Shown piece by piece: positions 18,729-41,767 of a stretch of DNA of 64,000 nt (positions are counted from its first letter, which is position 1; each line of letters starts with the position of its first letter). Origin of the DNA: Schmidtea nova. Its lineage: Eukaryota. A model generated the notes under the pieces. The model searched no databases. It had not been told where the DNA came from and saw only the letters and a program-made list of their open reading frames with translations. The stretch is from positions 460,660,001-460,724,000 of the forward strand of contig CM097882.1 of the NCBI GenBank assembly GCA_044892505.1, written 5' to 3'. The position numbers and the translations under genes were made by a program.

Positions 18729-19292
18729 ATGAGTGAACACCCAACTAGGAACTACAAACAAGAGGCTAAAGAGCACAAAGTACGATCGCAAGTCCTAGAA
18801 AACCGCTTGCGACAGCTAAACGAAGAGCACCAGCGGATTAAAGACACGTGGTTCAACCCAGAGAGGGTTAAAACCATCCTGCAAGCCAGATACAGGGCGG
18901 AACGAACAATCGACGAGCAAGCTAGGGAGGTAGCAGCACTAAAGATGGAGCTGTCGAATTACTTGAGGGCATCAACCCAGGAATTTATCAACGAGCAATT
19001 ACGCCCAGTGATCAGGGCTAGCACTTTTAACCGATGGGTGAACTCAATATCGATGACAACAAGTACCCAAACGGAAATAGAAACCATCCCAATCACAACT
19101 ACCCCAACATCCCCAATAATTCAGGAAGGCTCGAAACGAACAAAGAGACGGAATCGCTTGGGAGCGAAAAAGCGTAGGGAGAGACGCGCGTATGCAGATC
19201 GCGTAGGAATAGAGGTAGACTTGCTCAGTGGTCTATCTGAGCAAGAACTACTAAATGTAATCCGACCCTCTGTATTATTAAACTATAAATAA
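18729..19292 (+). CDS. LTR-encoded ORF-B, 187 aa from the first ATG; coiled coil plus basic NLS-like C-terminus
   Basis: TTTTACAG acceptor 2 nt before ATG 18729. A diverged homologue at 59490-59630 is 28/46 aa identical over the C-terminus. Confidence 0.75.
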   Translation: MSEHPTRNYKQEAKEHKVRSQVLENRLRQLNEEHQRIKDTWFNPERVKTILQARYRAERTIDEQAREVAALKMELSNYLRASTQEFINEQLRPVIRASTFNRWVNSISMTTSTQTEIETIPITTTPTSPIIQEGSKRTKRRNRLGAKKRRERRAYADRVGIEVDLLSGLSEQELLNVIRPSVLLNYK

Positions 19293-19682
19293 ATGTATAA
19301 AATGAATGACTTGACTCGTCTTGTCTGTGTGTAGAATGTCTGAAAATTGAATGGGACTAAAACCCGGATTCGTTTAAACTGCAGATATCTAAAAAGTAAA
19401 TTACCCTAGGACAATAGAAAGGAGCATAAGTGGGACCGAAAGAAAGCCACAGACACCTTCTAACGGTAGTGGTGGACCCGTGAATAAACAAGGGAATAGT
19501 AGCCGAAAGGTTGCTCACCTGCCTTGTCATTTCACAACGTTGACACAGCACCAACATGATGAGTAGTTAGGGATACATCATGGGTGTCAGCGGGGAAATG
19601 TTTTTATGTTGGCGAGATCACCCTAACATATAAAATCCTAAGGATCTCAGTTGTCAATCCAACCAACACACCAGCATAAATT

Positions 19683-19700
19683 TGGGGGCTCAGCCGGGAT
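19683..19700 (+). promoter_or_regulatory. Primer-binding site complementary to the tRNA-Pro 3-prime end
   Basis: TGGGGGCTCAGCCGGGAT, 6 nt after the LTR end. 16/18 identical to the canonical tRNA-Pro PBS TGGGGGCTCGTCCGGGAT. Confidence 0.88.
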
Positions 19701-20230
19701 TAAATCGATCTTTGTGGGAAAAAGTGAATTCGATATCTGCGGACAGTTTAGAGCGCCTGAACCGGGATGAATTGAATTTAGCGAGGAAAGTAAAGTAAAT
19801 AATAGAGGGTTTGAGGGTCCTGAAGCAAAAATGAATCGGGTTGAAAAATAATAAATAAAAGTATGAGTGTAAAATAATGGGATTGATGAACGTAATGAAA
19901 ATATGCATGAGAATGAAAGTATGAATGATAATGGAATGAAGGTATGAGGATGAATGAAGCATGATGACTAGTATGTGGAGTAACAGTATGAAAAGTGATG
20001 AAAAGTATGCATGACGTAAGGTAAAAGTATGCGGAAAAGTGTGCATGAAAATGGTATGAGTGTGAACAACTAGCAATGATCATGTCGGGGCGACATTCAA
20101 GAACACGGGGGGACATACACGTAGTGACGCGAAACAGAACAACAGAAAGCGAACAGTAGGACTACCATAGAATAAGAATAAGAAATAATAAATAAAAATC
20201 GACAAAAATTAATGAGAATTCATTCAGGGG

Positions 20231-20689
20231 ATGGAGAACAAAATAAAAGAAATGCAAACGTTTTTCGAGACAAATAACGAGACAATGGAGATAACAATGA
20301 GAAAGTTAAGACGACTCGAGGCAGGAGGATATCACAAACCGACAAACAGCACAGAAAAAGCGGAAATGATGATGAGCATAAGTAAGAATAAGATAACAGT
20401 GGATACAGCAACACGATATCAGTGGTATAGAGAAAGATTAAACAACCCTGAGATGAATATCGAGTGCCACAGGCTAGAACAACAAATTGCAACCAGACAC
20501 GATGAGTGGATAAGAATAACAACCGAACATACGAGACAATATCTGACGTGGTACATCTGTGAAATGAATAAGATACAGATAATGTTGTTGCCGTGTGGGC
20601 ATTTCCGATTCTGTAATGAGTGTAAAATAAATGAACGATGTCCTATGTGCAACCTTCCCGTATCCGAGAAAATAACAGTGTACTTGTAA
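20231..20689 (+). CDS. Small protein with a C-terminal IAP-type RING finger (no BIR), upstream of gag
   Basis: WYICEMNKIQIMLLPCGHFRFCNECKINERCPMCNLPVSEKITVYL matches the C-terminal RING pattern C..C......F.PCGH...C..C.....CP.C plus hydrophobic tail. The first Cys is replaced by Trp. Confidence 0.75.
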   Translation: MENKIKEMQTFFETNNETMEITMRKLRRLEAGGYHKPTNSTEKAEMMMSISKNKITVDTATRYQWYRERLNNPEMNIECHRLEQQIATRHDEWIRITTEHTRQYLTWYICEMNKIQIMLLPCGHFRFCNECKINERCPMCNLPVSEKITVYL

Positions 20690-21390: not shown

Positions 21391-21932
21391 GTGAGCATAG
21401 GTCTCATAGTGAGCATAGGTCTCGTCATAAACATAACATCATAGTGAGCATAGGTCTCGTCGTAAACATAACACCCTAGTGAGCGTAGGTCTCGTCATAA
21501 AACACAACACCATAGTGAGCATAGTTCTCGTCCGTAAATATAAATCTTGTAGTGAGCAGAGTTCTCATCAATAAACGTAAGTTCTAACAGCGAACATAGT
21601 CCTCATCAGTGAGCGTAGTTCTCATCAATAAACATAGTCATCGTAGTGAGCGTAGTTCTCATCAGGAAGCATAATTCCTGTAGTCACCATCAGTGAGCAT
21701 AGTTCTCATCGGGGAACATAATCCCCGGAGCAAAGAGTTTCCATCAGTAAGCAAAACCCTCATAACAACCATGTTTTGCCAGTGAGCATAGTTCTCGTCA
21801 GTGAGCATAGTTCTCGTCAGTGAGCATAGTTCTCGTCAGTGAGCATAGTTCTCGTCATTGAGCATAGTTCTCGTCATTGAGCATAGTTCTCGTTAGTGAG
21901 CATAGTTCTCAGCGGTGAGCATAGTTCTCGTT
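21391..21932 (+). repeat. Tandem array of a 19-bp unit AGTGAGCATAGTTCTCGTC in the 5-prime leader
   Basis: Eight near-perfect copies at 21781-21932, preceded by many progressively degenerate copies. Confidence 0.9.
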
Positions 21933-22258
21933 CGAAATGGAATATTGAGTAAAAGCCCACGAGAAAGACGACGAAGTGAGGCAGATGAGGACTAAATTAC
22001 GTATAAAACTATCCGGATAGTGAAGATCAATAAGCGATAATGGAGATGAATAAGTGATAATGAGGATAAATGATGAATAGTGAAAATGAATAGCGAATAA
22101 TGAGGAATAAGGGTTGAAAGAAACCGAATTAATAACGAGAGAGTTGAAGGTGCGCACCTGGGTATTGATAAATGCGAGTAAGCTGATTATGTGGCCTAAC
22201 GACGTCAAAGTATGCATACAAGGAGGAGTAGAAAAGTAAAGTGAGTAAGTGAAGGGTG

Positions 22259-22720
22259 CTGACTGGAAAACCCAGCAGACCATGAGATTCGATGGGAATA
22301 AAATGAAACCGGTTTGTTAAGACGGGTAAAGTGGTAAAGACGCTAGCTGGAAAACACAGCAGGTCAATGATAACGATCAGGAAAGATCGAGATAACAAAA
22401 GTGAGTAATAATAAAGTGATAAAATTGAGGACGCTGACTGGAAGACCCAGCAGGTCAAAAGTGATGATCATCGGAGTAAAGAGCAGGTAAAAGTCGACAG
22501 TAAAGAGATAAAGGGTGGATAATAAGAGCGCTGACTGGAAAAACCCAGCAGGCTAATGAAACGACAAGTGAGGTCGAGAATAATGAAGCAGAAGTAAAAG
22601 GTGAGATTAAAAGCGCTGACTGGAAAACCCAGCAGGCTAATGAAATAATGAGTGAAGTTGAGAGAAACAGAGTTCGAGATAAAAGGTGAGATTAAGGGCG
22701 CTGATTGGAAAGCCCAACAG
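22259..22720 (+). repeat. Six spaced copies of a bulged-A hairpin (CTG-A-CTGG-loop-CCAG-CAG)
   Basis: Copies start at 22259, 22343, 22434, 22531, 22616 and 22701 (period about 85-97 bp). Variant copies keep base pairing. Confidence 0.85.
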
Positions 22721-23597
22721 GCCAACGAGAGACGTCAGTTGACTCAAAGGTGAGTAGAGATGAGAATTGAAATGAAGTAGTAAACGCAGTGTGAATAGGA
22801 AATAAAGCGAATAGTTGAGAAACAGAGTAGTCGACAGAAAAGGGGAAATTTGAACTCAGAGCCAGAGAAGCCTGAGAAAAGTAAAGGGGATAATAAGAGC
22901 GCTGAGCGACAAAGTAATTGGAGAACTGGGGAAAAGTAATTGGTGTATTTGATAATGAATAGATAATTGATGCGACTGCATAGATAATTTAAATAGACTT
23001 AAAATCAAGGGAAATGGGAAAAATGGGGATCTTCATGAATTATGACTACACCCGTGAGAGGGACGAGAAACACGATAACGGGGACGTATCGTGTAAGTGA
23101 TTATTTGTTTTAAGGAAACAAATCAATCAAGCAATTCAAAGCAATCTAGCAGTCAGAGCAATCAAAGGAAACAAATCAAAGAAGAAGCAAAGCAAAAGCG
23201 GAGTAGAAAATCAGTTGAGAATATAAGAAGTTGAGGAATAGACAAAATTGAGGGACGAGAAACAAGATCAGGTATAATACCAATCTTAACGGAAGCAGAA
23301 AGAAAAGCAGCAAAAAGGACAAGAACAGGTAATAAGCCTAAGCAACAAAAGAACAAACAAGTAGAGATCAGCGACAATTCGAGTAATAAAGAGAATCAAG
23401 AAGAAACCCCAGAGGATCCAGAAGTACGAAACGAAGTAGAAACGATAGACAGTGAACCAGTCAGTGAAAACATAACGAGAAGCGAATCAAGAGATAACGA
23501 AACAGAGAGTAGTGAAGAAGAAGAGTCGAATTCAGAAACAAGTGGTGAACTAGAAGCAAAGAAAACTAGTACAGTATTCCAAGACAGTGGAATCGGG

Positions 23598-26500
23598 ATG
23601 AGTGAACACAGAGAGGATCTGAGAGAAAAATTCAAGGGCGAACCATTTAATGGAGACGCCAGTAGATTAGACACGTTTCTAAAGGAATTTGGCATATTCG
23701 TGGATATATGCGGATGGAGTGCAGAAACGTTAGCGAATCGAATCCCGCTATACTTGAAAGATAGCGCGTTGGATCTGTATATCGAAAAGAGATCTGGAAG
23801 TAGTCCACCCAGAACGTGGGAAGCAATCAAGGAGTTCTTCCAACAGACGTTTGGGATAAATAAAGTGCTGAATGAAGCATTCGATGAGTTTTCAGCAAGA
23901 AAACAAAGGAGAAACGAGTCAAACGCGGTGTACGCAAGTGAATTAAGAAAGTTGGCGAAACTGGCGTTCAACAGAGGAAGCCCAGTAGACGAAGAATTGA
24001 TGACAGCGTTATTCGTACGAGGTCTCAGGAGACCTGACATCAGAGCACAAGTGGGATGCAAGGGATGTAAAACAGTAGATGAAGCGTTGGAAGCAGCCAA
24101 CCTATTCGAATTGCATATGGCAATGAACGACATGAGAATTACGGCGGTAATGGGAAAAACGACAGAAGATGAAGAACAAGGAAAAAGAAACATGAATCAG
24201 AGTATTCCCCATTCACAGAGATTGTTCAAAGAACCGCCAGCGCGGAAGAATAACGGATATATCACGGTGGACCCGAATGGAGGAAATAGCTACAATGACA
24301 GGCAGAATAGGCAATGTCAGACGTGTGGAAAAAACGGACATTGGCAACAAGAGTGTTTTCAGAATGTAGCCTGTAAACTGTGTGGACAAAAGGGTCACTC
24401 AGAAAATCGATGTTATGGGAAAACGTGTTACACATGTGGAAAAACCGGACACATGTCAAGAGACTGTAATCAACAGAGAAGTTGGTCAAACAGTGGAAAT
24501 AGACCGAATTACGGGAATCGACCAAGCTATGGGAATCAGGGTCAACAACGGAATAACCCAAACAGCAGTGCAAATGAAGCCAGTATGAAAGAAGCCAAGT
24601 TGAGACAGGAGGTATCCAGATTACACGAGATAATCGAAAGCATGGCAAAGGGAAGCCAGCAAGCGGCTCAACCAAAGATAAACATGATCCAGTTAATAGA
24701 AGCTGAGGCTGAAAGAGAAAATAGGGAGAGCCAACAGAAACATAATCAAGAATGGGCTAGAGTACGACGAGAAGAAGAACAAGTCAGGCAACAACGATTA
24801 CAACAGTTAAAAAAGGGAAATCCAAGGATCAACATGATGCGAGCAATGATGGAAGAGAAGCAGCAAGATGAGTCAGACGAGTTAGAAGTTAAAGAGAAAA
24901 GAAACGAAGAGCAGAAACAAGAAGAAGTGAATCAGGAAGTGGAAACTGCGGAACAGAGTAAAAAAGATGAAGAAGCAGAAAAAGAAACGAATCAAGAAGA
25001 AGAAGTGAGAATTAAACAAAGAGGAATGTTAGTGATCATGCCGAATGATCACGTGTGGCGATTCAAATACGATGTAAAAGAAGAAGTGGGAAGATTGTTC
25101 AATAAAGTAAATGAGATGATTCCGGGAGTAACGAAACTACCCAGAGAAGCATTCCTACAAACAGAGGATTTGCCAGAAGTGAAGTTAAAGATGACCGACA
25201 TATGGGAAGATATGGGAGTAACAGAGACGAAAATAAACGTGATGATCATCAGAGAGGTGGAACCGGAGAAAATCCCACCACCAGTGAAACATCAAACGCG
25301 TATCAGTAGAATATTTAAAGGAAAAATAAGACGAAGACGGATGGAAGAAATAGAAGAGTTAGAGAAAAGAATGGGAAAAGCTGAAATAACGGGAACCGAG
25401 AAGGAACTAATACAGGAAGTTAGCAAAAACGAAGCGAGACCAACCGCGCATATTGGGATGCTGAGATACCCAAGACAAGAGTTGTCAGATGAAGAAGACG
25501 ACAGCGAAGTTAGCAGTCTGGCAGGAAACATGCTAAAGGAACCGGAAAACGAGGATAAAAAGATGGAAGTAGTCGAGACGATAGAAACGATGTCAGTAAA
25601 GAAAGAGGAAATTCAGAAGCTGATGGATAACGCGTTGGAAGTAATCCATAACGAGGAGTTTATCGACGGGAAACGATACCGAAAGTTTATACGAGCAGTA
25701 TGGCAGATAAAGTATAAAGAGTGGTTACAAGAAAGAGAAGTGAGGGTAATACAAGAGTTCATAGAGAAGTTATTGAAAGAACCACTCAACGAATACGTAA
25801 TACAAATATGGATAAACGAGTGTTCACCGAGAATCTGGATAAGGAACCCAATGACGGATGGAATTTACAGATGGGTTGAGGACAGATTGGGAAGCTCGTA
25901 CAAAGACAAATTCATATATTCGGAAAACGGATTGGTGAGAAAAGGAACGCATATGATAGACACAGGCATATGGCCAGGAGAAATAACGACGTTATCAATA
26001 TGCAACACCAAAAAGGAAGAGAACTTACAAGGAATCGTCAAAGAAGCGAATACGTGTTACGAGATGAGAATAAAACCTCAGTTGATAGAGGCAAAAGAGA
26101 GAATCTTGGCGGAGAATTTGAATACGATGATAGAACAGATCATCCAACAAATCAAGAAACATCGAAAGGAATTGACGAAAAGCGAGTATGAGAATTTGAA
26201 GCAGTGTATCGAGAACATACGAGATACAAGTCAAACGAGACACTCAAATTTCAAAACGGACAAGCTAATTGCCAAGATGGGAAAAGAAATGTTTAAAAGA
26301 GGAGAGGTATCAGATCTGAAGATTACCGTGAGATTGCCGAACGAGGAGACAAGACAAATTGAAGTAATACCAGATAGTAAAGTGGGAGAAATAGTAGATG
26401 TCATCAATGAGACGATATTACAACGAGAACGGGAAGACGAATTCGAAGATGACATTGCGATAAAATACAAAGAACATATACTGAACGAACGTGACGAAAG

Positions 26501-29500
26501 ACGAGCGTACAAAATCGGCATATGGGATAATTATCAGACAATACATGTCATCAGAATGGATGACGTGCCAAGAGCAACACCAAGAGATGAGGAAAGGAAA
26601 AAGAAACGACAAGAGGACGTTATGCGCAAGTTGAGACAGATAGTGGAAATCTATCGGAACTGGCAGATGAAGCCAGAATGGGAGACAATATTGGGAGAAT
26701 TAGATCTTAACAGACGACGATTGACGCCAGTAGAGAAGCAATGGGATAACAAAGAGAAATGTTGGAAAGTGAAAAGAGGCGTGTATGAAGAAGATCCAGA
26801 AGAAGAAGACAGATATGAACTGAATACGAAACGGATATGTATGGTAACAAGGAGGTTATTACCAACGGACTTAGACGGACCAGAAACTGCAGTAATATGG
26901 GCAGAATTGGAGAAACAGAAAACGAGTGAATTAATCGAGCTGTTAAGAGGAAATACTCGGGGAAAAAGACAAACAATAAAAGGCTTAGCACAATTCATAA
27001 TCACAAATGGAGAAGACATAACGAACTTGAGAAAAGTAGCTAAAGCGATAGCAGAATACAAGAGAGTTAACGAGTGGTGTCCAGAGCAACTAGACGATGT
27101 AATAAAAAAGTGGAGAAACAAAGAGTTTGCGGAGGAAACGCCACAGAAAATACATTTGAGGATAATGTATCCGAATCAGAGAAAAGAAGAGTTTTGGGTG
27201 ATGCTAACAGAGAAAGTGAAAAGTATTAAAGAGAAACTGATGTATGAACTACCATTCCACCTGCAACATCAAGGACGATCGTTGGATAATAGTTTGGAAA
27301 TCTGGCTGACACCAGTACAATTGGATTTAATGAATACGCTAACAGTGGCACAGATAGTGGGTCAACCACTGAAGTTTAAAGAGGAAAAGAAAACGAAAGG
27401 AAGCATGAGTACACCGAGTCCGATGAAGTCAACAATGACCCCAGGAACAAGTTCGGGACAAGCAAGGACAACACCAATAAAAACGAGAGAGAGAACACCG
27501 CCAGAAGCGTATGACGTCGATGAGATACTAACAGATAGTGATGAGGCGATAGAAGAATTAACGAAGTTGACTCAAAAACCAACAGCGAACATTTTCGACA
27601 GAATAATAGAGATGCCAATAACGTCACCAGCAGAAATCGACGATCAAGGAGTGGAACAGGAGGTAGTCATAGAAATGGTAAACGAATCGGAAGACGAGCA
27701 AGAACAACCACAGTTTACTCAAGAAATGGAAAGATGGTTAGAACAGCGAGCGAACGAAGGAAGAGATGTTACGGAAGAAACAGGAAGAGCAACGAGATTT
27801 GTAGAAACCGGAACTGGAATGGAAAAACGACCAAGAGGAAGACCAAAGATAGATCCAACAACAGCAATTCCAAAGACAAGGGAAGAAAGGAGACAAGAGC
27901 AATGGGAGATTTGCTTGAAGAAACTGGATAAAATTGCAGAAATCAGAGGAAAAGAGGAGAATCAAGTTTGTCAAGGAGAAGAATGGCTCACCAAAACGAT
28001 AATGGATGTGTTAGCGATAATTGATCCAGAATTAAAGAATTTGTGGCGAATAAACGAACCTAGTACAAAGGCAAGGATGCTACACAATGCAATAGCACCA
28101 ATTATGCCAGAATTGATAAAGGCAAAAACAAAATCGAATCATCTAGATTGGCAAGGAACCACGATGTTAATAAAAAGGCTACTTAACGGAGCAGAAACGG
28201 ACAGCAAATATCTAGTAGCAATCTCGTATACGATATACAATTTGTTAACGCTAAGCCGAGGAAGTCCGAAGTCAAGTCCGATGGGAAGACATATCAAGAA
28301 CACGGCGATGATTATCGAGAAGGAAATTGAACCATATATCCTCAGAAAAGGAGGATGGGAAAAGTTCATAAAAGAGAACCAGACAAAAGAAGGGTCTAAC
28401 GTGATGAGAAAGAAACTCGAAGGAGTATTGAGGGAAATGGAGAATAGACAAACGATGCAAGGAAACGGAAGATCGACGTTGAATCTAAATTCGATAATCA
28501 TGATGATGTTAGTATGGTTGTTAAGCACGGAAGGTGTAACAACATTTGAAGTATTTGATTGTGATCAAATGAAGTTAGGAGAAAAGTACTCATTGAGAGG
28601 TACGGAGCAATGCAAAGATGCAACTCCAGTAGAGTTGAGAGAGATCAAAAAGGAACAATGGTATAACGTGTATCAAGAAGCAGAACTAATAAAGACAATG
28701 GTGAATGAATGCAAAGTGCAAAAGACGAGATTCGCATTCTATTGTGGGAGAGGACATTACTCAGCAATTGTCATGCCAGGAACGGAAAGAGAACCAATCG
28801 TGTTACAAGGAGAAGATTGTGAAGCATTGTTTAAACATGGAGAAGTAACAACAAGGGATAAAATCAAGATAAAAGGAAAACCAGGAATGATGTTACAGCA
28901 GACGTATTATGTAGCAGGACGAATTACGGGAGGAGAAGGGTATTGTCAAGGAGAAACCTACCCAATATTTGGAGTACCTGCGACCAACTTAGTGGTAATG
29001 GATACGTACATAGTCGAACTGAAAAGTTACGAAGCATTCTTCGAACCAACAACAGGAGAAATGAAAACGTTATCCATGTGTAAAATTGACAGAAGCATGT
29101 GTCAAACGGGAATGTCAACATTGGTGTATAAACCAAAAGTGAACGAATGTCAATTACAACTGCTACAAGGAGCAAAGTTCGACGAAATTCAAGGAAAAAC
29201 ATTCCAAGAAGAAGATGATGATGACAAAGCTAGAGCAAAACATCTCAAAGAGGCTTTAGAGAATAAAAGACAATTGAGACCAGATCATAAAGAAAAACGG
29301 ATAGAGATGAGAACCACACCAACAGTGTTGATAACCACAAATCAGGATGTGGGCATGAGATTCATAAAAGGGAAAGCAACCCTTAAGTGCAGTACAACAG
29401 TATACGAAACAAATTATCCAGGAATATACGTGTCAAAGCAGGAAGTGCCTAATGCGAAACCCAAGATCGACACAATGGATATCAAGCTACACTTGTATGT

Positions 29501-31823
29501 GAATAATAAAATGGATTTCTTATTCCATAGAGGACAAGCCTCATTACAAAAAGTGTACTATGATCTGATAAATAACGATTGTATACTGAATCGGGAAATA
29601 TTAAAGACAAAGTTGGCCGTAGCGATTACGAATCCAGATAGCGCGATGCCGTTATTACCACTGAGAGAAGGACATTTCGGAAGAGTGGTCGGAGAAGCAA
29701 TGTACGTATACATTTGCGAAAAAACACACGCATCGCTAGCAGCAACAACGCAGTTGAAACCTGGACAATGTACAAATGAATTAGAAATCGATTATAAAGG
29801 AAAAGTACGATACGTTCAACCGGTGACGAGAATCACCAATCCACCAGGGTTTGAACCAAATCCATTCAACTGTAGTAATGCGTACGGACCACTTTATCAG
29901 AAGCCAGATGGCAAATGGGTTATGTTCCCAGGAAGAACCGAAGTATTAGCACCAAGAGAATTCGAACTAATGCAGTTGTCAAAGGATAGACAGTTCAGCG
30001 ACGTAGATGTCTCAAACAACGGAATCTATAGTCCAAAGGATTTAGAAGCAGCAAGACAGAATATACTATTCCCGGCAAGAAGAGAAGCATTACTGTCAAA
30101 TATCGTAACGATAACGGGAGGAACGAATTATCGAGAAGGACCAAATTACGAACTGCTGTTGTCACCGGCACATTTCAAGAAAGCCACAGAAAATATGATG
30201 AAGGCAATGTGGGGGAGATTCCTGATATTCGGACAAATGATGGCTGGAATACTGGGTGTTATATTGATAATACAAATCGTCAGAGTGATAATAACGCAAA
30301 TGTTAGCGTGTTTCGATATCTACAAAAGAGAAAAGAAAGTGAATTGGAAGATGGTAGTAGGATTTTTACCATTCCTTGCGAAAACGATGGTGTTACACGG
30401 ACACTCAAAAGACATACATCGAATAAAGAGGTTGTTGAAGATACTTGCAAAAATGAGAGGAACAAACGAAGATGTCGGAAGGAAATTCAAAAAGATAATG
30501 CAAGACGAGCAAGCAAGGCGACAATTAAAGAAAGAAAGGAAAGGATTATGGGAAAGAGTGAGAGGATATCGAACGCAGGATGACTCAAGCAATGATGATG
30601 ATGATGATGACAATCGAGGAGGACAAGCGAATATAAACCAGATTCCACAATACACCGAAAAGAGTGCAGTTGAGAATTGGAGATACAGCGCTCCACCTCA
30701 GTCAATGTATAACGAACCGATATACAAAGCGAAGCCGAATATGATGCAGATGATGCCGATGACAAGTATATACCCGATAATTCCAGAAGGATGCAAAGTA
30801 AAACGATGCAGAAGTGTAGACCCGTTGGAAGACACGCACACGATAGCGGTTATGTCCACAAATATGGGACCGATTTTAACAACAACCGTAGAAATAAACG
30901 GAAGAGAAATTGAAGCTATGATCGATACAGGCGCGAATATTTCGGCGATCGACATCAACTATATACCAGAGAAAAGCCAAGGAGAAATTGAGAAAACGAA
31001 TGTACATGTAATCGCGTGCAGCCAAGAGACAGTAGAAGTAGCCGGAAGATGGTTCGTAAAAATTAAGCATCGAGGTGCAGAAATCAACACGTACATCGCT
31101 GTAATACCATCGCTGAGTGTACCATGTATTATTGGAACTGACCTGATGCCAGACCTGTTCAAGGAAATCGTAATTGATCTAGGAGCAATGAAACTAAAAG
31201 ATAGAACAGGAAAAATCTGCAGGATGAAAGTTAAAGTGGCAAGTGCGGAACAAATAGTAGTACCAGCGAGACACGAAATGATGTGCTATGTCAAGATCGA
31301 TTCAACAATAAAGGGAGATATGATATTCGAACCAAGTAAGAAGTTCGAAGCAAAGAAAGAATTACCAATGGCAAGAGAATTGGTTACGATAAACCAAGAA
31401 GGAGAGATACCAATTAATCTGGTAAACTTCGATGAAGAGGACAAGATAATATACGAGAATGAGAGATTGGGTAAATTGACACCCATGTCCGAAATCGAAA
31501 TACCAGACAAGAACGAGAAAAGCAAAGACGAATTACCATGGAAAATCGACAGTGTGTTGTTAGACGAACGACAAAAAGAACAGTTACAAAAACTGTTGAT
31601 GGAATATAAAGATATATTCGCAGCATCCGATTTAGATCTGGGAACATGTGATGTAACATTACACACGATACCGTTGACGGACGAAACGCCAATCGCATTA
31701 CGACCATACAAACTGGCAGAAGCTCAAAAAGCAGTGGCAGAAGAAGAGGTACAAAAGATGTTAGATGCAGAGGTCATCGAACCTAGTTGCTCACCCTGGC
31801 AATTCCCAGTGGTGATGGTGTAA
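23598..31823 (+). CDS. Polyprotein part 1: Gag (capsid, 3 CCHC knuckles), ubiquitin-like domains, AT-hook, Bcl-2-like domain, class III envelope, aspartic protease, start of RT
   Basis: Capsid-like FNGDASRLDTFLKEF. Knuckles CQTCGKNGHWQQEC, CKLCGQKGHSENRC, CYTCGKTGHMSRDC. AT-hook KRPRGRPK; BH2-like YILRKGGWEKF; protease MIDTGANISAI. Ends at a TAA inside the RT motif PVVMV*KKDG. Confidence 0.92.
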   Translation: MSEHREDLREKFKGEPFNGDASRLDTFLKEFGIFVDICGWSAETLANRIPLYLKDSALDLYIEKRSGSSPPRTWEAIKEFFQQTFGINKVLNEAFDEFSARKQRRNESNAVYASELRKLAKLAFNRGSPVDEELMTALFVRGLRRPDIRAQVGCKGCKTVDEALEAANLFELHMAMNDMRITAVMGKTTEDEEQGKRNMNQSIPHSQRLFKEPPARKNNGYITVDPNGGNSYNDRQNRQCQTCGKNGHWQQECFQNVACKLCGQKGHSENRCYGKTCYTCGKTGHMSRDCNQQRSWSNSGNRPNYGNRPSYGNQGQQRNNPNSSANEASMKEAKLRQEVSRLHEIIESMAKGSQQAAQPKINMIQLIEAEAERENRESQQKHNQEWARVRREEEQVRQQRLQQLKKGNPRINMMRAMMEEKQQDESDELEVKEKRNEEQKQEEVNQEVETAEQSKKDEEAEKETNQEEEVRIKQRGMLVIMPNDHVWRFKYDVKEEVGRLFNKVNEMIPGVTKLPREAFLQTEDLPEVKLKMTDIWEDMGVTETKINVMIIREVEPEKIPPPVKHQTRISRIFKGKIRRRRMEEIEELEKRMGKAEITGTEKELIQEVSKNEARPTAHIGMLRYPRQELSDEEDDSEVSSLAGNMLKEPENEDKKMEVVETIETMSVKKEEIQKLMDNALEVIHNEEFIDGKRYRKFIRAVWQIKYKEWLQEREVRVIQEFIEKLLKEPLNEYVIQIWINECSPRIWIRNPMTDGIYRWVEDRLGSSYKDKFIYSENGLVRKGTHMIDTGIWPGEITTLSICNTKKEENLQGIVKEANTCYEMRIKPQLIEAKERILAENLNTMIEQIIQQIKKHRKELTKSEYENLKQCIENIRDTSQTRHSNFKTDKLIAKMGKEMFKRGEVSDLKITVRLPNEETRQIEVIPDSKVGEIVDVINETILQREREDEFEDDIAIKYKEHILNERDERRAYKIGIWDNYQTIHVIRMDDVPRATPRDEERKKKRQEDVMRKLRQIVEIYRNWQMKPEWETILGELDLNRRRLTPVEKQWDNKEKCWKVKRGVYEEDPEEEDRYELNTKRICMVTRRLLPTDLDGPETAVIWAELEKQKTSELIELLRGNTRGKRQTIKGLAQFIITNGEDITNLRKVAKAIAEYKRVNEWCPEQLDDVIKKWRNKEFAEETPQKIHLRIMYPNQRKEEFWVMLTEKVKSIKEKLMYELPFHLQHQGRSLDNSLEIWLTPVQLDLMNTLTVAQIVGQPLKFKEEKKTKGSMSTPSPMKSTMTPGTSSGQARTTPIKTRERTPPEAYDVDEILTDSDEAIEELTKLTQKPTANIFDRIIEMPITSPAEIDDQGVEQEVVIEMVNESEDEQEQPQFTQEMERWLEQRANEGRDVTEETGRATRFVETGTGMEKRPRGRPKIDPTTAIPKTREERRQEQWEICLKKLDKIAEIRGKEENQVCQGEEWLTKTIMDVLAIIDPELKNLWRINEPSTKARMLHNAIAPIMPELIKAKTKSNHLDWQGTTMLIKRLLNGAETDSKYLVAISYTIYNLLTLSRGSPKSSPMGRHIKNTAMIIEKEIEPYILRKGGWEKFIKENQTKEGSNVMRKKLEGVLREMENRQTMQGNGRSTLNLNSIIMMMLVWLLSTEGVTTFEVFDCDQMKLGEKYSLRGTEQCKDATPVELREIKKEQWYNVYQEAELIKTMVNECKVQKTRFAFYCGRGHYSAIVMPGTEREPIVLQGEDCEALFKHGEVTTRDKIKIKGKPGMMLQQTYYVAGRITGGEGYCQGETYPIFGVPATNLVVMDTYIVELKSYEAFFEPTTGEMKTLSMCKIDRSMCQTGMSTLVYKPKVNECQLQLLQGAKFDEIQGKTFQEEDDDDKARAKHLKEALENKRQLRPDHKEKRIEMRTTPTVLITTNQDVGMRFIKGKATLKCSTTVYETNYPGIYVSKQEVPNAKPKIDTMDIKLHLYVNNKMDFLFHRGQASLQKVYYDLINNDCILNREILKTKLAVAITNPDSAMPLLPLREGHFGRVVGEAMYVYICEKTHASLAATTQLKPGQCTNELEIDYKGKVRYVQPVTRITNPPGFEPNPFNCSNAYGPLYQKPDGKWVMFPGRTEVLAPREFELMQLSKDRQFSDVDVSNNGIYSPKDLEAARQNILFPARREALLSNIVTITGGTNYREGPNYELLLSPAHFKKATENMMKAMWGRFLIFGQMMAGILGVILIIQIVRVIITQMLACFDIYKREKKVNWKMVVGFLPFLAKTMVLHGHSKDIHRIKRLLKILAKMRGTNEDVGRKFKKIMQDEQARRQLKKERKGLWERVRGYRTQDDSSNDDDDDDNRGGQANINQIPQYTEKSAVENWRYSAPPQSMYNEPIYKAKPNMMQMMPMTSIYPIIPEGCKVKRCRSVDPLEDTHTIAVMSTNMGPILTTTVEINGREIEAMIDTGANISAIDINYIPEKSQGEIEKTNVHVIACSQETVEVAGRWFVKIKHRGAEINTYIAVIPSLSVPCIIGTDLMPDLFKEIVIDLGAMKLKDRTGKICRMKVKVASAEQIVVPARHEMMCYVKIDSTIKGDMIFEPSKKFEAKKELPMARELVTINQEGEIPINLVNFDEEDKIIYENERLGKLTPMSEIEIPDKNEKSKDELPWKIDSVLLDERQKEQLQKLLMEYKDIFAASDLDLGTCDVTLHTIPLTDETPIALRPYKLAEAQKAVAEEEVQKMLDAEVIEPSCSPWQFPVVMV
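27960..28380 (+). other. Bcl-2-like domain within the polyprotein
   Basis: BH2-like EIEPYILRKGGWEKFIKE (compare W I xxx GGW xx F). Weaker BH1-like segment IKRLLNGAETDSKYLVAISYTI at the expected spacing. Boundaries approximate. Confidence 0.6.
28488..30320 (+). other. Envelope glycoprotein, chuvirus-G / herpes-gB-like class III fusogen
   Basis: Signal-like SIIMMMLVWLLSTEG, then FEVFDC...EQC and a Cys-rich ectodomain. CILNREILKTKLAVAITNPD...GHFGRVVGEAMYVYIC and GIYSPKDLEAARQNILFPARR resemble chuvirus-type G motifs. TM segment FLIFGQMMAGILGVILIIQIV. Boundaries approximate. Confidence 0.8.
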
Positions 31824-34376
31824 AAGAAGGATGGAACTCAAAGATTCTGTATCGATTACAGACGATTGAATGCAGTTACGAAAAGAGATACGTACCCATT
31901 GCCAGACATAAACGAAATGTTGTTGACGTTACAAGGAGCAGCTTATTTCACGTCACTGGATTTAAAGAGCGGATATTGGCAGATCAAAATGAAAGACGAA
32001 GATAAAGAAAAGACAGCATTTACAATCGGACGAGATCTGTACCAATTCAAGAAAATGCCGTTTGGGTTAACAAACGCGCCAGCATCATTCCAGAGATGCA
32101 TGAATTTCGTAACACATGGCATAAAACAATGCATGGTGTATATCGACGATCTATTGATCTACTCCGCAACATTCGAAGATCACTTGCAAGACATCAGAAA
32201 TGTGTTCGTGAAATTAAGACAATGGAAACTGAAATTAAAGCCGTCAAAGTGCGATTGGGCAAAAGAAAAAGTGACATTCTTAGGTCACATTGTCTCAGCA
32301 AAAGGAAAAGAACCAGATCCAAGGAATATCGAAAAGGTCAAAGAATGTCCACCACCAAAGACAGTGACTCAAATACAAGAATTTTTGGGATTGTGTGGAT
32401 ATTATCGAAAGTTCATCAAGGACTATGCAGGAATATCAAAGCCAATGCAAGAATTAGTAAGACAAGACGTGTCGTTTGTGTGGGGAGCAGAGCAACAAGC
32501 AGCATATGAAATATTGCGAGACAAACTGATTACAGCACCAATATTGGTCCATCCAGATTTTAAGAAGCCATTTTTGTTGGCAACAGATGCAAGTGGATAC
32601 GCAGCAGGAGCAGTACTAGGTCAATTTGACGAAGAAGGCAAGGAAAGAGTAATCGGATATTACAGTCGAACCTTCAGGAAGCATGAAAAGAATTACTCAG
32701 TCACGGAAAGAGAAGCCTATGCGATAATATTGGCAATCAAGCATTTCAAATACCTATTGTGGGGTCATGAGATATATATTACAACGGATCATCAACCATT
32801 GGTATGGTTAGGTCAACATAAAGAATCATCAAGTAGATTGATGCGTTGGGCGATGCAACTACAAGAATACTCGCCATTCATAAAGTTTAAAGCAGGAAAA
32901 GCAAATGCAAACGCGGATTGCATGTCAAGGTTTACATTTCCAGAATTGGTGAACCTGAATGCTCTAAAAATATGTGCATTAATAGCGGAAGATTTGGATT
33001 TCAGCGAATTAAGGAAAGATCAACTCGAAGATGAGGAGTTGGGATTGATCAGCAAGTATTTGAAAGAAAGGGAAATAGAAATATTCGGCAAGAACCAAGT
33101 GTTGCGCGAACATATGCAGAAATACCAACATAGATACGTGATGGAAAAAGGATGGTTATTGATACAAGATGGAGAACGGAGATTAATGTGCTTACCTGCG
33201 AATAGGCGAAAGGAAATCATGACTCAATATCATGACGGAAAATTAGGCGGACATATGTCAGCAAAAAAGACAAGCGGAAGACTGAGACAAAAGTATTTTT
33301 GGCCAACCATGGAAGATGATGTGAAAGAATGGATAAAGAACTGCTTAACCTGTGCGACAAGAAAGAACGTCGGAACGAAGTGGAAAACACCACTAAAACC
33401 AATGCCAATACCTGCAGAACCGATGGCGACGATAGCAATGGACGTAGTTGGGCCATTGCCGGAAAGTTTAAAAGGAAATCAGTACATATTAGTAGTCACG
33501 GACTATCTAACAAAGTTCCCAGAAGCGTTCGCAATACCAGATCAAAAAGCAAAAACAGTCGCGAGAATATTGGTGGAAGAGATATGCTGCAGATACGGAA
33601 CACCAAAGAAAATCCTAACGGATCAAGGAACAAATTTCATGAGTGAAATATTGGACGAAGTTACGAATTACTTCAGAATCGCGAAATTACGAACATCCCC
33701 ATACCATCCACAAACGAACGGTCAAACAGAAAGGTTCAATGGAACATTGATACGCATGTTGTCGAATTACGTCAGTAAACATCAAACTGACTGGGACGAA
33801 TATATCAACTTATGTTTGATGGCATACAGAATGTCAATTCATGCGGCAACAAAGCTAAGTCCATTTCAACTGATGTACGGAAGAGATTGCAACTTACCGA
33901 TCGATTTGGAATACCAACCACCATTATCACAGTACATGGAGGTTGACGATTACGTGACGAAGTTCAAAGAAAGAATGCAAGAAATCTGGAAAACGGCGGA
34001 ACTGAACATCAAGTTCTATCAAGAAAGTTATAAGGATCTCCATGATCAGAAAAAGAATGTGAAAGCACATGATTTAAAAGTTGGAGATTGGGTGATAATT
34101 GAGACACCAGAGATAATACCCGGTACGGTCAAGAAACTCCAACGACCAGGCAAGGGGCCATACGAAATAACAACCGTAAACGAAAACAATGTGCGAGTAC
34201 GATTGGTGAACAATCCATTGGTAAGACCAATATACGTGAATGCATGTCGATGCAGGAAAATACCAAAGACAGCAACTCTATTACCAGAGAAACGGGTAAT
34301 GACAAGATCACAGACGGCGAGAATTAATATGTTGCGAGTACAACAAAAGCCGCAAACAAGTCTAGAAGACAAGTGA
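31824..34376 (+). CDS. Polyprotein part 2: RT, RNase H, integrase (same frame as part 1)
   Basis: RT: RFCIDYRRLN, DLKSGYWQI, MPFGLTNAPASFQR, YIDD. RNase H: TDASG, TDHQPL. IN: H..H/C..C, DVVGP, TDQGTNF, ERFNGTL, GPY. Confidence 0.96.
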   Translation, partial: KKDGTQRFCIDYRRLNAVTKRDTYPLPDINEMLLTLQGAAYFTSLDLKSGYWQIKMKDEDKEKTAFTIGRDLYQFKKMPFGLTNAPASFQRCMNFVTHGIKQCMVYIDDLLIYSATFEDHLQDIRNVFVKLRQWKLKLKPSKCDWAKEKVTFLGHIVSAKGKEPDPRNIEKVKECPPPKTVTQIQEFLGLCGYYRKFIKDYAGISKPMQELVRQDVSFVWGAEQQAAYEILRDKLITAPILVHPDFKKPFLLATDASGYAAGAVLGQFDEEGKERVIGYYSRTFRKHEKNYSVTEREAYAIILAIKHFKYLLWGHEIYITTDHQPLVWLGQHKESSSRLMRWAMQLQEYSPFIKFKAGKANANADCMSRFTFPELVNLNALKICALIAEDLDFSELRKDQLEDEELGLISKYLKEREIEIFGKNQVLREHMQKYQHRYVMEKGWLLIQDGERRLMCLPANRRKEIMTQYHDGKLGGHMSAKKTSGRLRQKYFWPTMEDDVKEWIKNCLTCATRKNVGTKWKTPLKPMPIPAEPMATIAMDVVGPLPESLKGNQYILVVTDYLTKFPEAFAIPDQKAKTVARILVEEICCRYGTPKKILTDQGTNFMSEILDEVTNYFRIAKLRTSPYHPQTNGQTERFNGTLIRMLSNYVSKHQTDWDEYINLCLMAYRMSIHAATKLSPFQLMYGRDCNLPIDLEYQPPLSQYMEVDDYVTKFKERMQEIWKTAELNIKFYQESYKDLHDQKKNVKAHDLKVGDWVIIETPEIIPGTVKKLQRPGKGPYEITTVNENNVRVRLVNNPLVRPIYVNACRCRKIPKTATLLPEKRVMTRSQTARINMLRVQQKPQTSLEDK

Positions 34377-34484
34377 AGGGAGATAATAGACATCAAAGAA
34401 CTGGCAAAGAAAACCAGAGAAATTATACCAGAATGGAAATGGTGGCACGATTTCAATATACTGTCAGAAGTTCGAAAGAATGTA

Positions 34485-37400
34485 ATGGACTATGCGAAGG
34501 ATAGAACAGCACATCCAATAACAAGAACGCTGCTAGAGGAAATCCCTCAAACTTTGAATCTACAAGACAAAGACGGTAATACCGCGTTGCACAATGCAAT
34601 CAAGCACAGTGGAAACGAAAAAGTGAAGGAAATTGTAGAGATGATACTCGAAGGTGGAGGAGAAATTGACAAAGTGAATTGGGAAGGAATCACTCCACTT
34701 ATGATGATGACGATTCACGGAAGAAACGATGAAATAATCAAGCTATTCGGAAACACCAGATCGAATTGGATGGCAAAAGATAAAGAAGGACGAACATTCT
34801 TGAATCATGCAATTGACAGAGCAAATCACCGAATACTGAAGTATATTATGGAAAATGCCACGTGGGAAATCGATGAACTAACCAGAGGATCTATCATGAA
34901 ACAAGCAATCGGGGTAAAGAACAGTAAAACCTGGAGAATATTGCTAAAGTGGAAACGACCAGAAGGAGATTCGTGGGTCATAGATTGCAATGAAGTATTC
35001 ACAAGAGGAGAAAATGCGTTACTGAAACATCTATTAGAAGTAACATACGATCCAAAAACACTTGCAGTGTTGATAGCGAGAGATACGTTACGGGTTAGCG
35101 AAAACCCAAGAGAATACAAGTTGGAAGACAGAAAGAAAGAACTATTCGGATTAATCAAGAAATGGTGTGATAAACAATGGAATCCGGATATGAGCTTCGA
35201 ACATTTCTATGACATCCAAAAGCAGCACAAAGAAATAAGCAAGCGATATAAAGAGCTGATAGAAGCATTGAAATATGGACAGTTCTTCAGACAAGCAGTG
35301 TATCAAGACCAACGAATGAAACAGATGCAAACGCGAATAAGAAGCAAAGCAGTGTTGTTCAATGCAAAAGCTGATTATCAAGAGAGATTAGACGCAATCG
35401 TAGCAAAAGCACAGGAAAAATTATCGGAATTCAAAGAGAATAAAAACTCGTTGGAAATACTAGGAGCGATTACAGAGAAAGTGCACAGATATGCACAAGG
35501 GGATTATAACGAGATCGACATAGAAACGATCAAAAATCAAATGCCAGTGGCATTCCTATTATCAAAGGATGGGAGATTGCCGATACACTGGGCATTACGT
35601 CGAAAGAAAGAAAACGAAGTGCTGGAAATAACGAAAGCGATGGTCAAGTGCGAAGCAGACATGAATACGGTTGACGATAACGGAGATACAATCATGATAA
35701 TCGCAGCAAGAAAGAAGACGAAATGGAAAGTGCTAAATGAATTATACGAAGCAGGAGCAAAAATCGAAGGGAAAAATGGAAAGAATAATTCCATCATAGA
35801 TATCGCAATACAGTGGAACAACTTCGAGATGATCAAGTTCATAAAGTCCATCAAGAGACAAGAGGACATAGAATACCTGGCAAATAACGTAAAGAAGTTC
35901 AGCCTGACAGTAATGATACACGACATAGAGAAAACAAGAGCATTATTAACATGGGTGAATCCGAGCACCAAGGAACAGGCGTTCAAGGTCAATGACCATA
36001 TGGAACAGAATCAGAATTGGTGTATCAGAAGCGCGTTATTAAGACACAAAAAGCCAGAGATAGTAGAAGAATTCTTAAAGAGAAGAGATGTGAAGTTCAC
36101 GAACAATCCAAAGGAACCCGAACGAACGGGAAGATGGAAAGACTTGTTCAGGAAGTATGTGAATGAGTGGGCAAAAGCCAAAGAAACGATCAAGCAAAGT
36201 AGACTAAAAGACATAGAACCATCCAAAGATATGGAAATACGGGAATTCGAGTCTAGCACACTCGCGGTTCAAGCGTATGAAAGATTGATTGAAGAAATTA
36301 ATGTCGAGGACGACATTTTCAAAGGACCAGGGGGTGGTTACAGAGATTTCGACGACAAAAGCAACAACGAAGAGAACAACGAAGACAAGGACAACAAAAG
36401 AACGGAGGATAATGAGAAAGAAAGACAAGAAGAACCGAAGTCAACGAGAAACGACAAGAAAGGAGAAGCAGAAGAACGAGAAAACAGTGGAACAAAAGAC
36501 GAACATGCGAATTATGGAAAACGAACAGGAAGTCTACTTTTGAGACCAGAAATGTTGTGTATTGCGATATTGATAACAATCATCGGACAAGGAGAAGCCA
36601 AGAAACAATACGTCACGCTAGAGATAATCAGAGGAAATGAAGTATACGAAAGAATATGCTGGAAAGAAAACCTGAGGAAAAACGATACGCTGAAGTGTAT
36701 ATTGTCAGATTTGAAGCGAGACGTCATCCAAATCAAAGGATTGGAGAAAGAAAAGTCATACATAATATGCGCAATAAAGCAGAGAGGAGAACCAAAAGCA
36801 CCTCAAGTAACTGCATGCCAATTATACAAAGCAACGGAAGCGCTGAAGATACAGAAATGGATTGAGAAAAGAAGCGAAGAGACAACGAGAAGAACAGAAG
36901 TGGAATCAGAGAAAGGGAAGAATCAATCTGAAGCAGAAGAAGGAATCAGAAACCGAACAGAGAAAGAAAGAATAACCAAAAATCCAGCGGGCAAATTAAC
37001 ATTCCAACCAGAATTGATATGTGTAGCATTAATATTAATCCTCATTAAGAGAATCATGGAGGACATAGATATCAGCGTGATGACGTTAGTAAACATCCAA
37101 GATCAACGAACAACGAATGGAAGATGTTGGGGACGAAACAATGAGGTAATTGGAATCAGCGAAACAAGAGAAATAGTAGAGGCGGAGACAAATGAGGAAA
37201 TAGAGATAACTGAAATGGAGACAGATAGAAAATGTGAACTATGTCTCATGGAAAAGGCAGCAAACGGAAACAGACCAGGAACAAGCGAGTGTAAAGTGTT
37301 CCAAGCAAAGGAGATAATTGAATTCCCAAAAAGAAAGAAACAAGATCAAGAAACGATTGCGAATGAAGTAGTAACCGTGGAGATAAAAAACATTGGTCGG

Positions 37401-38465
37401 AGAACAATTGGGATGTGTTGGAGAAAATACATCGGAGTATCGACCAGTCACGTACTACCGCAATGCAGAACGAGAGAACGAGGAATCCCGTTTCAACTAA
37501 ATGGATTCGAAGTCGGACAAGCCTACGAAATTTGCGTAATTCGAAGAATAAGAGAAATAATACAAAGAAGCCTGGAGTGCAAACTGTACAAGACGCCAGA
37601 GCAAATTAACGGAACAAGAACGATCGAAATGGGAAGAAGTCGACAGAGGAAAAGAAAGTCAAGAAGAACCACGACAGCCAACAGTCAAGGAGTTCAACAG
37701 GTAACAACAGAAAGGATGACAATAGAAAACGAACCGGAATCAACAACGTTGATAATATGGAAGATCCATAAAAAGGTCCTAGAAATCTGTTGGACATTAA
37801 TGCCAAACAGTATGGGAAAGTCTCCACGAAACTGTCAAAAGACATCAAATGACAAAAAGGAAACAATCGAGGTAGAAATGAGGAAGTTGAAAACAAATGC
37901 AGAATATGTAGTGTGTGCAATTGAAGAAGTGGATACACAAGGAAATCCACAAGAAAGGTGCGAAACCTACTACACACCGATAAAGAGGAGAATCAAAAAG
38001 TTAGAATTCCGAGAATTGAGTCAGAAGAGAGAACAAAACGAGAAGGAAGAAACAATACCAAATCAACAAGAAAAATGGGAACCAGAGAAAGTGATCGAAG
38101 AAGTCAGACGGAGACAACAACAATATGAACAATGGGAAGCGGAATGGAAAGGTCAATATGGCGTGATGATAAACCAAAGTGAGACTCCAAGAAGGAGCAT
38201 TGGGAAAACAATAATGGGATTAATCAGCATGGGAGTATTCATAGCGTGTATACCGCTGATAACGATCATGATAGTATGTTGGAGATATGGCATGAGAAAT
38301 AAGACCATAGCAGTAAAATGGCCGGACGTAAAGGTCACGAATTACAACATAAAACTACCAAAAGAAGTACGAGAAGAGCTGAAAAGACGATCAAAACACG
38401 AAGAGATGTGGGTACAGATCGAGGACGAGGAACTGTACGAAGGAAAACCAGTGATAGTTGTATAG
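34485..38465 (+). CDS. Ankyrin-repeat plus FN3-like membrane protein (same frame as pol; only a TGA at 34374 separates them)
   Basis: Ankyrin motifs DKDGNTALHNAI, GITPLMMM, GRTFLNHAI, GRLPIHWAL, NGDTIMIIAA. Two signal/TM-like segments, three repeats of (ICW...I.GL.....Y.ICAI) resembling FN3 strands, and a C-terminal TM segment. Confidence 0.8.
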   Translation: MDYAKDRTAHPITRTLLEEIPQTLNLQDKDGNTALHNAIKHSGNEKVKEIVEMILEGGGEIDKVNWEGITPLMMMTIHGRNDEIIKLFGNTRSNWMAKDKEGRTFLNHAIDRANHRILKYIMENATWEIDELTRGSIMKQAIGVKNSKTWRILLKWKRPEGDSWVIDCNEVFTRGENALLKHLLEVTYDPKTLAVLIARDTLRVSENPREYKLEDRKKELFGLIKKWCDKQWNPDMSFEHFYDIQKQHKEISKRYKELIEALKYGQFFRQAVYQDQRMKQMQTRIRSKAVLFNAKADYQERLDAIVAKAQEKLSEFKENKNSLEILGAITEKVHRYAQGDYNEIDIETIKNQMPVAFLLSKDGRLPIHWALRRKKENEVLEITKAMVKCEADMNTVDDNGDTIMIIAARKKTKWKVLNELYEAGAKIEGKNGKNNSIIDIAIQWNNFEMIKFIKSIKRQEDIEYLANNVKKFSLTVMIHDIEKTRALLTWVNPSTKEQAFKVNDHMEQNQNWCIRSALLRHKKPEIVEEFLKRRDVKFTNNPKEPERTGRWKDLFRKYVNEWAKAKETIKQSRLKDIEPSKDMEIREFESSTLAVQAYERLIEEINVEDDIFKGPGGGYRDFDDKSNNEENNEDKDNKRTEDNEKERQEEPKSTRNDKKGEAEERENSGTKDEHANYGKRTGSLLLRPEMLCIAILITIIGQGEAKKQYVTLEIIRGNEVYERICWKENLRKNDTLKCILSDLKRDVIQIKGLEKEKSYIICAIKQRGEPKAPQVTACQLYKATEALKIQKWIEKRSEETTRRTEVESEKGKNQSEAEEGIRNRTEKERITKNPAGKLTFQPELICVALILILIKRIMEDIDISVMTLVNIQDQRTTNGRCWGRNNEVIGISETREIVEAETNEEIEITEMETDRKCELCLMEKAANGNRPGTSECKVFQAKEIIEFPKRKKQDQETIANEVVTVEIKNIGRRTIGMCWRKYIGVSTSHVLPQCRTRERGIPFQLNGFEVGQAYEICVIRRIREIIQRSLECKLYKTPEQINGTRTIEMGRSRQRKRKSRRTTTANSQGVQQVTTERMTIENEPESTTLIIWKIHKKVLEICWTLMPNSMGKSPRNCQKTSNDKKETIEVEMRKLKTNAEYVVCAIEEVDTQGNPQERCETYYTPIKRRIKKLEFRELSQKREQNEKEETIPNQQEKWEPEKVIEEVRRRQQQYEQWEAEWKGQYGVMINQSETPRRSIGKTIMGLISMGVFIACIPLITIMIVCWRYGMRNKTIAVKWPDVKVTNYNIKLPKEVREELKRRSKHEEMWVQIEDEELYEGKPVIVV

Positions 38466-41694: not shown

Positions 41695-41767
41695 AAAGAG
41701 GCGAAAAATCCGTGTGTAAAAATGTACAAATCGATGTAACAGGTATTAATCAGTAGAATAATCAGAA

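Follow-up and report, generated by a model that had tools for sequence, protein, structure and literature searches.

An envelope gene in frame between gag and protease in the broken copy of a giant, probably Burro-type Ty3/gypsy element of Schmidtea nova

The window analysed in this study is a stretch of 64,000 nucleotides (nt) of the Schmidtea nova genome (assembly GCA_044892505.1, contig CM097882.1, positions 460,660,001 to 460,724,000 of the forward strand), and all coordinates given below are window positions. By self-comparison of the window a retrotransposon of 29,397 nt in total was delimited at 16389-45785 on the + strand, with a target-site duplication of 4 nt, AGTT, at both flanks. 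The duplication and the TG...CA ends of the long terminal repeats (LTRs), together with the order protease (PR), reverse transcriptase (RT), RNase H (RH) and integrase (IN), are those of a Ty3/gypsy element. The first large open reading frame of the element family (ORF1) encodes, in this order, Gag, a linker, a Bcl-2-like region, a signal, Env with its transmembrane segment and tail, PR, a dUTPase-like segment, RT, RNase H, IN, ankyrin repeats and membrane repeats.

We searched the genome with the env-protease region and scored 40 of 847 candidates. All 40 matches are essentially full length and the 39 besides the window copy are 96-97% identical. For comparisons between copies we used 19 of these 39, drawn from the top and the bottom of the list. 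The ratio of nonsynonymous to synonymous differences per site (pN/pS) is based on uncorrected pairwise counts on these related copies. The LTRs and the parts of ORF1 are the following, with expectation values given as E:

16389..19676, + strand: 5' LTR, 3,288 nt, 6 mismatches to the 3' LTR (99.82% identity)
42498..45785, + strand: 3' LTR, 3,288 nt, from the self-comparison
23598..38465, + strand: family ORF1, 4,955 codons, broken twice in the window copy
23598..24467, + strand: Gag, a capsid-like region and three CCHC knuckles (zf-CCHC E 1.6e-9)
27960..28380, + strand: Bcl-2-like domain (weak) directly ahead of the Env signal, GGW at 28350
28485..28547, + strand: predicted internal signal peptide (hydropathy 2.2; the hydrophobic stretch extends to 28556)
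28545..30209, + strand: class III fusion glycoprotein ectodomain (chuvirus G / herpesvirus gB-like), 561 amino acids (aa), 14 Cys
30210..30326, + strand: Env transmembrane anchor (stop-transfer), hydropathy 2.55, conserved in relatives
30327..30850, + strand: Env tail, cytosolic, containing IYPxI at about 30768
30861..31160, + strand: aspartic protease, DTGA at 30924 (RVP E 1.6e-9)
31218..31500, + strand: dUTPase-like segment between PR and RT, with homologs in the same position in relatives
31821..31823, + strand: in-frame TAA at the start of RT, private to the window copy (a stop in 0 of 16 other copies)
31824..34373, + strand: RT, RNase H and integrase in Ty3/gypsy order
34374..34376, + strand: second private in-frame stop, TGA (a stop in 0 of 16 other copies)
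34545..35849, + strand: two ankyrin-repeat clusters, in frame past integrase (Ank_2 E 6e-20 and 8e-8; pN/pS 0.12)
36525..38297, + strand: second membrane module, from hydropathy and repeat alignment

An earlier, sequence-only reading of this DNA had placed an envelope gene in frame between gag and protease. This proved right, as the zinc knuckles (at 24315, 24372 and 24426), the signal, the ectodomain, the transmembrane segment and the DTGA motif share one frame from the ATG at 23598. The same reading had taken 23598-34376 as the open frame. That no stop or frameshift occurs from gag to protease stands, whereas a TAA interrupts the frame at 31821 and 34376 is not its end in the family; the 1,362 C-terminal codons, the stop at 31821 and the boundaries of the 29.4-kb element had been overlooked. 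Because both stops (31821 and 34374) are private to the window copy, the family ORF1 is assigned to 23598-38465, and its terminal stop at 38463 is common to 16 of 16 other copies. For the same reason we do not read 31821 or 34374 as sites of programmed readthrough. Slippery-type heptamers are present, yet no frameshift is required, and a 2A-like motif was not found. Judged from its own sequence, the window copy cannot make RT itself and would need the enzymes of another copy.

Eleven of 18 other copies have an open frame all the way from the zinc knuckles to the protease, and 14 of 16 have one from Env to RT. Every lesion lies at its own position, which argues that the gag-env-pro fusion is a family trait and not a product of chance. 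An in-frame D[ST]G follows the transmembrane segment in all 13 sequences that are long enough, while the remaining five of 18 end earlier. Since no stop or frameshift common to the family separates gag, env and pol, equimolar synthesis of the three would follow, for a full-length unspliced mRNA only.

A class III fusogen had also been proposed for the envelope gene, and profile, model and Foldseek searches all found this fold. The ectodomain matches the Monjiviricetes fusion glycoprotein family (Pfam: PF24664) with E 1.1e-72. Its structural model has a mean predicted local distance difference test (pLDDT) score of 89.4 and contains a central helix of 48 residues. Foldseek aligned the model to chuvirus-type glycoproteins (E 3.4e-37, template modelling score up to 0.72) and to gB (E 3.7e-14, score about 0.4). 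No match was obtained in a PDB search with the single Env sequence, whereas a profile built from 102 Env sequences gave 37 PDB matches, all of which are herpesvirus gB (best E 7e-4).

The topology suggested before, a signal ahead of Env and a stop-transfer segment behind it, agrees with the hydropathy, as hydrophobic stretches lie before and after Env and are kept in relatives. A signal-like stretch (13-residue score of at least 1.9) precedes Env in 14 of 16 sequences; one exception scores 1.67 and the other is mis-anchored. The stretch is followed by a c-region of small residues and then by a conserved [YF]DC. A hydrophobic residue followed by YP is found in 11 of 13 Env tails, against a shuffle mean of 0.9, and PTAP or PSAP in two of 13. 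We take these YPxL-like and PTAP/PSAP motifs to be reminiscent of the late domains that engage the endosomal sorting complex required for transport (ESCRT).

Between copies, Env has a pN of about 0.004 and a pS of about 0.16, and thus a pN/pS of 0.026-0.029, compared with 0.025-0.028 for RT, 0.03 for the capsid, 0.12 for the linker and 0.21-0.24 for the C-terminal module. Env is under purifying selection and is as constrained as RT. An open env frame could also be expected of a captured passenger that stays open only because a stop there would cut off pol, since a position ahead of pol purges stops and frameshifts whatever Env does. However, selection removes missense changes from Env with the strength seen in RT and with four times that seen in the linker, and the layout with Env inside the chain persists among relatives at 30-41% Env identity. 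The passenger explanation is refuted by the pN/pS of about 0.03 and we regard it as highly improbable.

The insertions of the element are very recent. In six other copies, the two LTRs of a copy show 99.88-100% identity when compared over 0.8-2.6 kb, and with the window copy included the identity is 99.8-100% in seven of seven pairs. Since the LTR pairs are near-identical and the copies are 16% apart at silent sites, the silent divergence is older than the insertions, and selection acted on a replicating lineage. As a whole, the window element is best explained as a giant Ty3/gypsy element of Burro type (a gB-type errantivirus) that was inserted recently and has since been broken, and whose family encodes Gag, Env, the enzymes and a second membrane protein in a single ORF. 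We give this reading a probability of about 0.7.

The enzymes of ORF1 are readily annotated by Pfam (RVT_1 E 2e-36, RT_RNaseH E 9e-39, Integrase_H2C2 E 2.5e-21 and rve E 1.8e-11), while several other parts are not. The capsid-like region of Gag has no Pfam match; it aligns with the N-termini of related polyproteins. The dUTPase-like segment at 31218..31500 likewise has no Pfam match, and its name is borrowed from the Burro description (PMC6431247). For the Bcl-2-like region, the window sequence alone gave no match and an atlas search gave no usable one, whereas a profile of three sequences matches Bax (E 0.002) and Bcl-xL (E about 0.02). The homolog of this region in a second lineage, described below, matches PF00452 with E 0.0025, which is under the cut-off, and pN/pS in the region is 0.02-0.04. 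In the linker, ubiquitin-like stretches were suspected by eye and not confirmed, with no Pfam match for a ubiquitin/SUMO-like segment. An in-frame insertion of 18-30 nt in the acidic linker (window 24976-25000) is present in 14 of 19 other copies and missing from the window copy.

The second membrane module begins with a signal-like stretch at 36525-36596, has a second hydrophobic stretch at 36987-37091 and ends with a final transmembrane segment at 38196-38297. It contains four Cys-bearing repeats of about 80 aa, at 36600, 37068, 37359 and 37731. The model of one repeat, of low confidence (pLDDT 53), resembles mostly fibronectin type III domains (Z 5-6). The repeat profile matched no PDB sequence, and an atlas search gave no usable match. 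We treat fibronectin-III-like repeats as a lead from modelling. A BIR domain gave no Pfam match in the 11 element segments scanned.

A second gag-env-pol lineage was found in the same genome by a search with PF24664. It is 36% identical to the window element in Env and 46-48% in RT, with no nucleotide match to it over env. Its protease motif lies in the Env frame at 29 of 30 loci, and 18 of the 30 are stop-free over 4.9 kb. Four elements were followed through overlapping stretches, and in each of them a single ORF of 3,393-3,401 aa reaches from the capsid to integrase. This lineage also has a Bcl-2-like domain ahead of the signal, and its Env tail contains both PTAP and IYP.

Relatives in the databases escaped two word-indexed protein searches and were found by a full HMMER search; we used the best 150 of 773 at E 0.001 or better, 12 of which exceed 1,000 aa. 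Env is in one chain with PR or RT in 10 of the 21 relatives scanned, and one of them also has a zinc knuckle upstream. In RT, the window element is 46-57% identical to env-bearing database relatives. The relative P0062 carries a Pao-type DUF5641 upstream of its glycoprotein. Seven relatives (P0001-P0004, P0009, P0015 and P0152) carry two or more aspartic-protease domains in tandem downstream of Env, separated by ankyrin and C2H2 domains, and P0152 has up to seven matched aspartic-protease stretches, compared to one in the window element. An env-PR-RT-IN polyprotein, HBK71150.1 (P0007), is annotated as a hypothetical protein of a Flavobacteriaceae metagenome-assembled genome, and is probably animal DNA contaminating a bacterial bin.

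RT to integrase is missing in three of the 19 copies through two different in-frame deletions of 4,650 and 4,818 nt. Both fuse the PR region to the C-terminal membrane module, with junctions at window 31517/36161 and 31469/36277. The first junction occurs in five of the 40 scored matches (L001, L019, L078, L079 and L080) on three chromosomes, the second in L012. The five copies are 4.4% apart, which is the same distance as to full-length copies, and they do not group in two trees, both of which are poorly resolved. Such a pattern is compatible with a single deletion that spread in trans and underwent recombination, or with template switching that happened more than once. As the 31517/36161 junction is a 7-nt microhomology and has no GT donor, an origin from reverse-transcribed spliced RNA was rejected. 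Since three of the five copies carry stops, a helper role is no more than conceivable.

In the mechanism that we propose, Gag and the linker would be made in the cytosol, and the internal signal would direct Env into the endoplasmic reticulum (ER), where signal peptidase would free the Env N-terminus. The cleaved signal would remain attached to the Bcl-2-like domain and serve it as a tail anchor. The Env transmembrane segment would stop transfer, and PR-RT-RH-IN would remain cytosolic, at first tethered to the Env tail, until the protease of the element cleaves the chain at domain borders, where sites of the type K/R-I-N/C-M/A recur. Env would serve cell-to-cell passage in enveloped particles, for the budding of which the YPxL-like tail motif may recruit ESCRT. 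The motif K/R-I-N/C-M/A/V-hydrophobic is found six times in ORF1, including after the nucleocapsid (aa 360), at the RNase H/IN border (3124) and after IN (3575).

The genes might instead be fused in the DNA while their ratios are set at the RNA level, by spliced, early-terminated or internally started messages, so that synthesis is not 1:1:1. Spliced gag messages occur in copia-type elements. In-frame ATGs at 28404 and 28437 lie just ahead of the signal in 19 of 19 copies, although nearly all codons here are conserved and the conserved ATGs carry little weight. The downstream accessory ORFs need some subgenomic route of expression, and one GT..AG joint in the leader (19994-20074) was seen in four runs of contigs of unknown kind. 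No leader-to-env joint was among the 15 joints listed of 43 from such contigs, which were not used as splicing evidence. On the other hand, the pol-deleting junction is a microhomology and not GT-AG, and the signal remains fused behind a long upstream sequence in many divergent relatives. Control at the RNA level is compatible with the polyprotein being made as well, and we consider it a real possibility, somewhat short of an even chance.

Env might also be needed for something other than infection, as an ER anchor or organiser of Gag and Pol or in intracellular assembly, with the element moving within the cell only. The fusion does make Env a structural part of Pol synthesis, and the accessible Burro literature (PMC6431247, PMC8532177) holds no particle or infection evidence. 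For a mere anchor, however, a complete class III ectodomain whose cysteines are conserved and whose pN/pS is 0.03 would be superfluous, and we think that this alternative is unlikely.

Beyond the identity of the element, we tentatively suggest that the family is a still-spreading retrovirus-like agent of its host and not a purely intracellular transposon. Its single polyprotein would cross the ER membrane several times and provide Gag, a functional class III fusogen and the enzymes, as well as a Bcl-2 mimic with the Env signal for its tail anchor and a second surface protein bearing fibronectin-like repeats, with the budding signal in the Env tail and not in Gag. This suggestion, which we hold to be rather doubtful, builds on insertions that are fresh (LTRs 99.8-100%) and yet show 16% silent divergence and a mosaic pattern, as in a circulating virus population.

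Several points weigh against the favoured explanation of the element and the mechanism proposed with it. Selection on Env alone does not demonstrate infection. The signal and topology assignments have hydropathy as their sole basis, and two hydrophobic stretches ahead of the last transmembrane segment make the topology of the C-terminal module ambiguous. The Bcl-2 assignment is weak, with GGW before Env in just six of 16 sequences. The YP motif is also present in the tails of 41 of 86 stand-alone glycoproteins; it is thus not special to the fusion and arrived with the captured gene. Finally, the cleavage motif was chosen after inspection, which inflates its shuffle test (6 seen, 0.13 expected). 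A similar pattern is seen in few relatives and not at all in the second lineage. For these reasons the motif is only a candidate cut site.

Outside ORF1, the element contains the following features:

17874-18536 and 18642-19292 (again at 43983-45401), + strand: two conserved LTR ORFs, no Pfam family
19683..19700, + strand: putative primer-binding site, 6 nt past the LTR, identical in 6 of 6 copies
20216..20689, + strand: upstream accessory ORF with a C-terminal RING finger (zf-C3HC4_3 E 6e-8), in 6 of 6 copies
21393..22730, + strand: tandem and dispersed repeats of the leader, with a 19-nt unit at about 21400-21950 and more at 22227-22730
39014..40444, + strand: separate TRAF-like gene with RING, zf-TRAF and MATH (MATH_2 E 6e-27)
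40504-41694, + strand: coiled-coil-like accessory ORF with a conserved stop
41762-42292, + strand: ORF of a small protein with a single hydrophobic stretch and a conserved stop

The putative primer-binding site is presumably tRNA-Pro-like. Each of the two LTR ORFs is present in five of six other copies, and a weak homolog of the first lies near the second gag-env-pol lineage. The stop of the TRAF-like gene is identical in 15 of 15 copies spanning the site, and its pN/pS is 0.11. For the accessory ORFs within 40504..42292, pN/pS is 0.11-0.15 and no Pfam family was found above the cut-off.

Further repeats surround the element. An RT ORF of 807 aa with a C-terminal GIY-YIG-like motif, flanked by perfect inverted repeats of 202 nt, lies at window 10501-13283; we take it to be Penelope-like. 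A palindrome of 194 nt at 46362-46555 consists of sequence related to this RT element. At 61653-64000, an intronless ORF of 537 aa (61861-63474) with two RING fingers lies between inverted repeats of 386 nt that are 99% identical, and this unit is possibly a mobile element with a captured gene. At 57905-58598, a unit of about 150 nt is repeated in tandem in degenerate form.

The gag-env-pol arrangement is already known, and the novelty implied by the sequence-only reading does not hold. In-frame env between gag and pol has been published for the Burro elements of planarians (Arkhipova and Yushenova 2019, PMC6431247), and the order GAG-ENV-POL with a gB-type Env has been reported for nematodes, bryozoans and flatworms in a survey (eLife 2026, PMC13524379). 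The Burro ORF1 of 4,873 or 5,140 aa comprises CCHC Gag, BCL2-like, Env, PR, dUTPase-like, RT-RH-IN, ankyrin and MATH-TRAF domains (PMC6431247), and BURRO1 is transcribed and PIWI-silenced (PMC8532177). The window element is a further member of the Burro-type elements with a different accessory-gene order, and its likeness to Burro1-4 was judged by description and not by sequence comparison.

As in Burro1-4/GYPSM1 of dugesiid planarians, the element is about 30 kb long with long LTRs and many copies, and its ORF1 of 4,955 codons compares with 4,873-5,140 aa (PMC6431247). It shares with them a three-CCHC Gag, a BCL2-like domain (weak here), a mononegavirus-related Env followed by PR, tandem repeats, and ankyrin, MATH-TRAF and RING accessory domains, the latter in a different order. 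The segment between PR and RT may correspond to the dUTPase-like one of Burro. The element and its AT-rich flanks also suggest a dugesiid planarian as the host. Unlike in Burro, MATH-TRAF is a separate ORF downstream of pol, whereas in S. mediterranea it is part of ORF1 and in D. tigrina of an upstream ORF (PMC6431247). The lack of a detected BIR, a domain reported for Burro1-4, argues against identity with Burro1-4 and not against membership of the group, as the published accessory domains vary. The second membrane module after integrase, with its four fibronectin-III-like repeats, is not mentioned in the accessible Burro text (PMC6431247).

New here are the evidence for selection on Env, the conserved internal signal (predicted), the YPxL-like tail motif and the accessory-gene order, with TRAF downstream, no BIR found, and ankyrin repeats and the membrane module after integrase. 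A literature search without most subscription journals turned up no publication that deals with selection on Env, its processing or particles in Burro, and the domain order found here may already be shown in published figures or supplements. With the signal, the tail motif and the candidate cut sites mapped, the processing model becomes testable, and the more interesting question is whether Burro-type elements make infectious particles.

The element resembles the HSV/gB-type (herpes simplex virus gB) errantiviruses of order GAG-ENV-POL in having a class III gB-like Env with signal and transmembrane segment upstream of a gypsy pol; the account of these, in its accessible part, gives the ORF order without discussing in-frame fusion or processing (PMC13524379). 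With the glycoproteins of chuviruses and other Monjiviricetes, and of the chuvirus-G-bearing BEL/Pao elements, it shares the Env family and fold. In those, however, Env stands alone or after integrase, and here it stands before a Ty3/gypsy protease. The window element would work like the structural polyproteins of alphaviruses and of flaviviruses/hepaciviruses, in which a capsid on the cytosolic side precedes an internal signal peptide and an envelope protein in the lumen. Core-E1 of hepatitis C virus is an example (PMC5402940). Unlike the window element, to which they have no homology, flavi-, hepaci- and alphaviruses are RNA viruses with class II fusogens. If particles exist, the Burro-type family would be an enveloped reverse-transcribing agent that is built like a flavivirus polyprotein and equipped with mimics of the apoptosis and NF-kB pathways.

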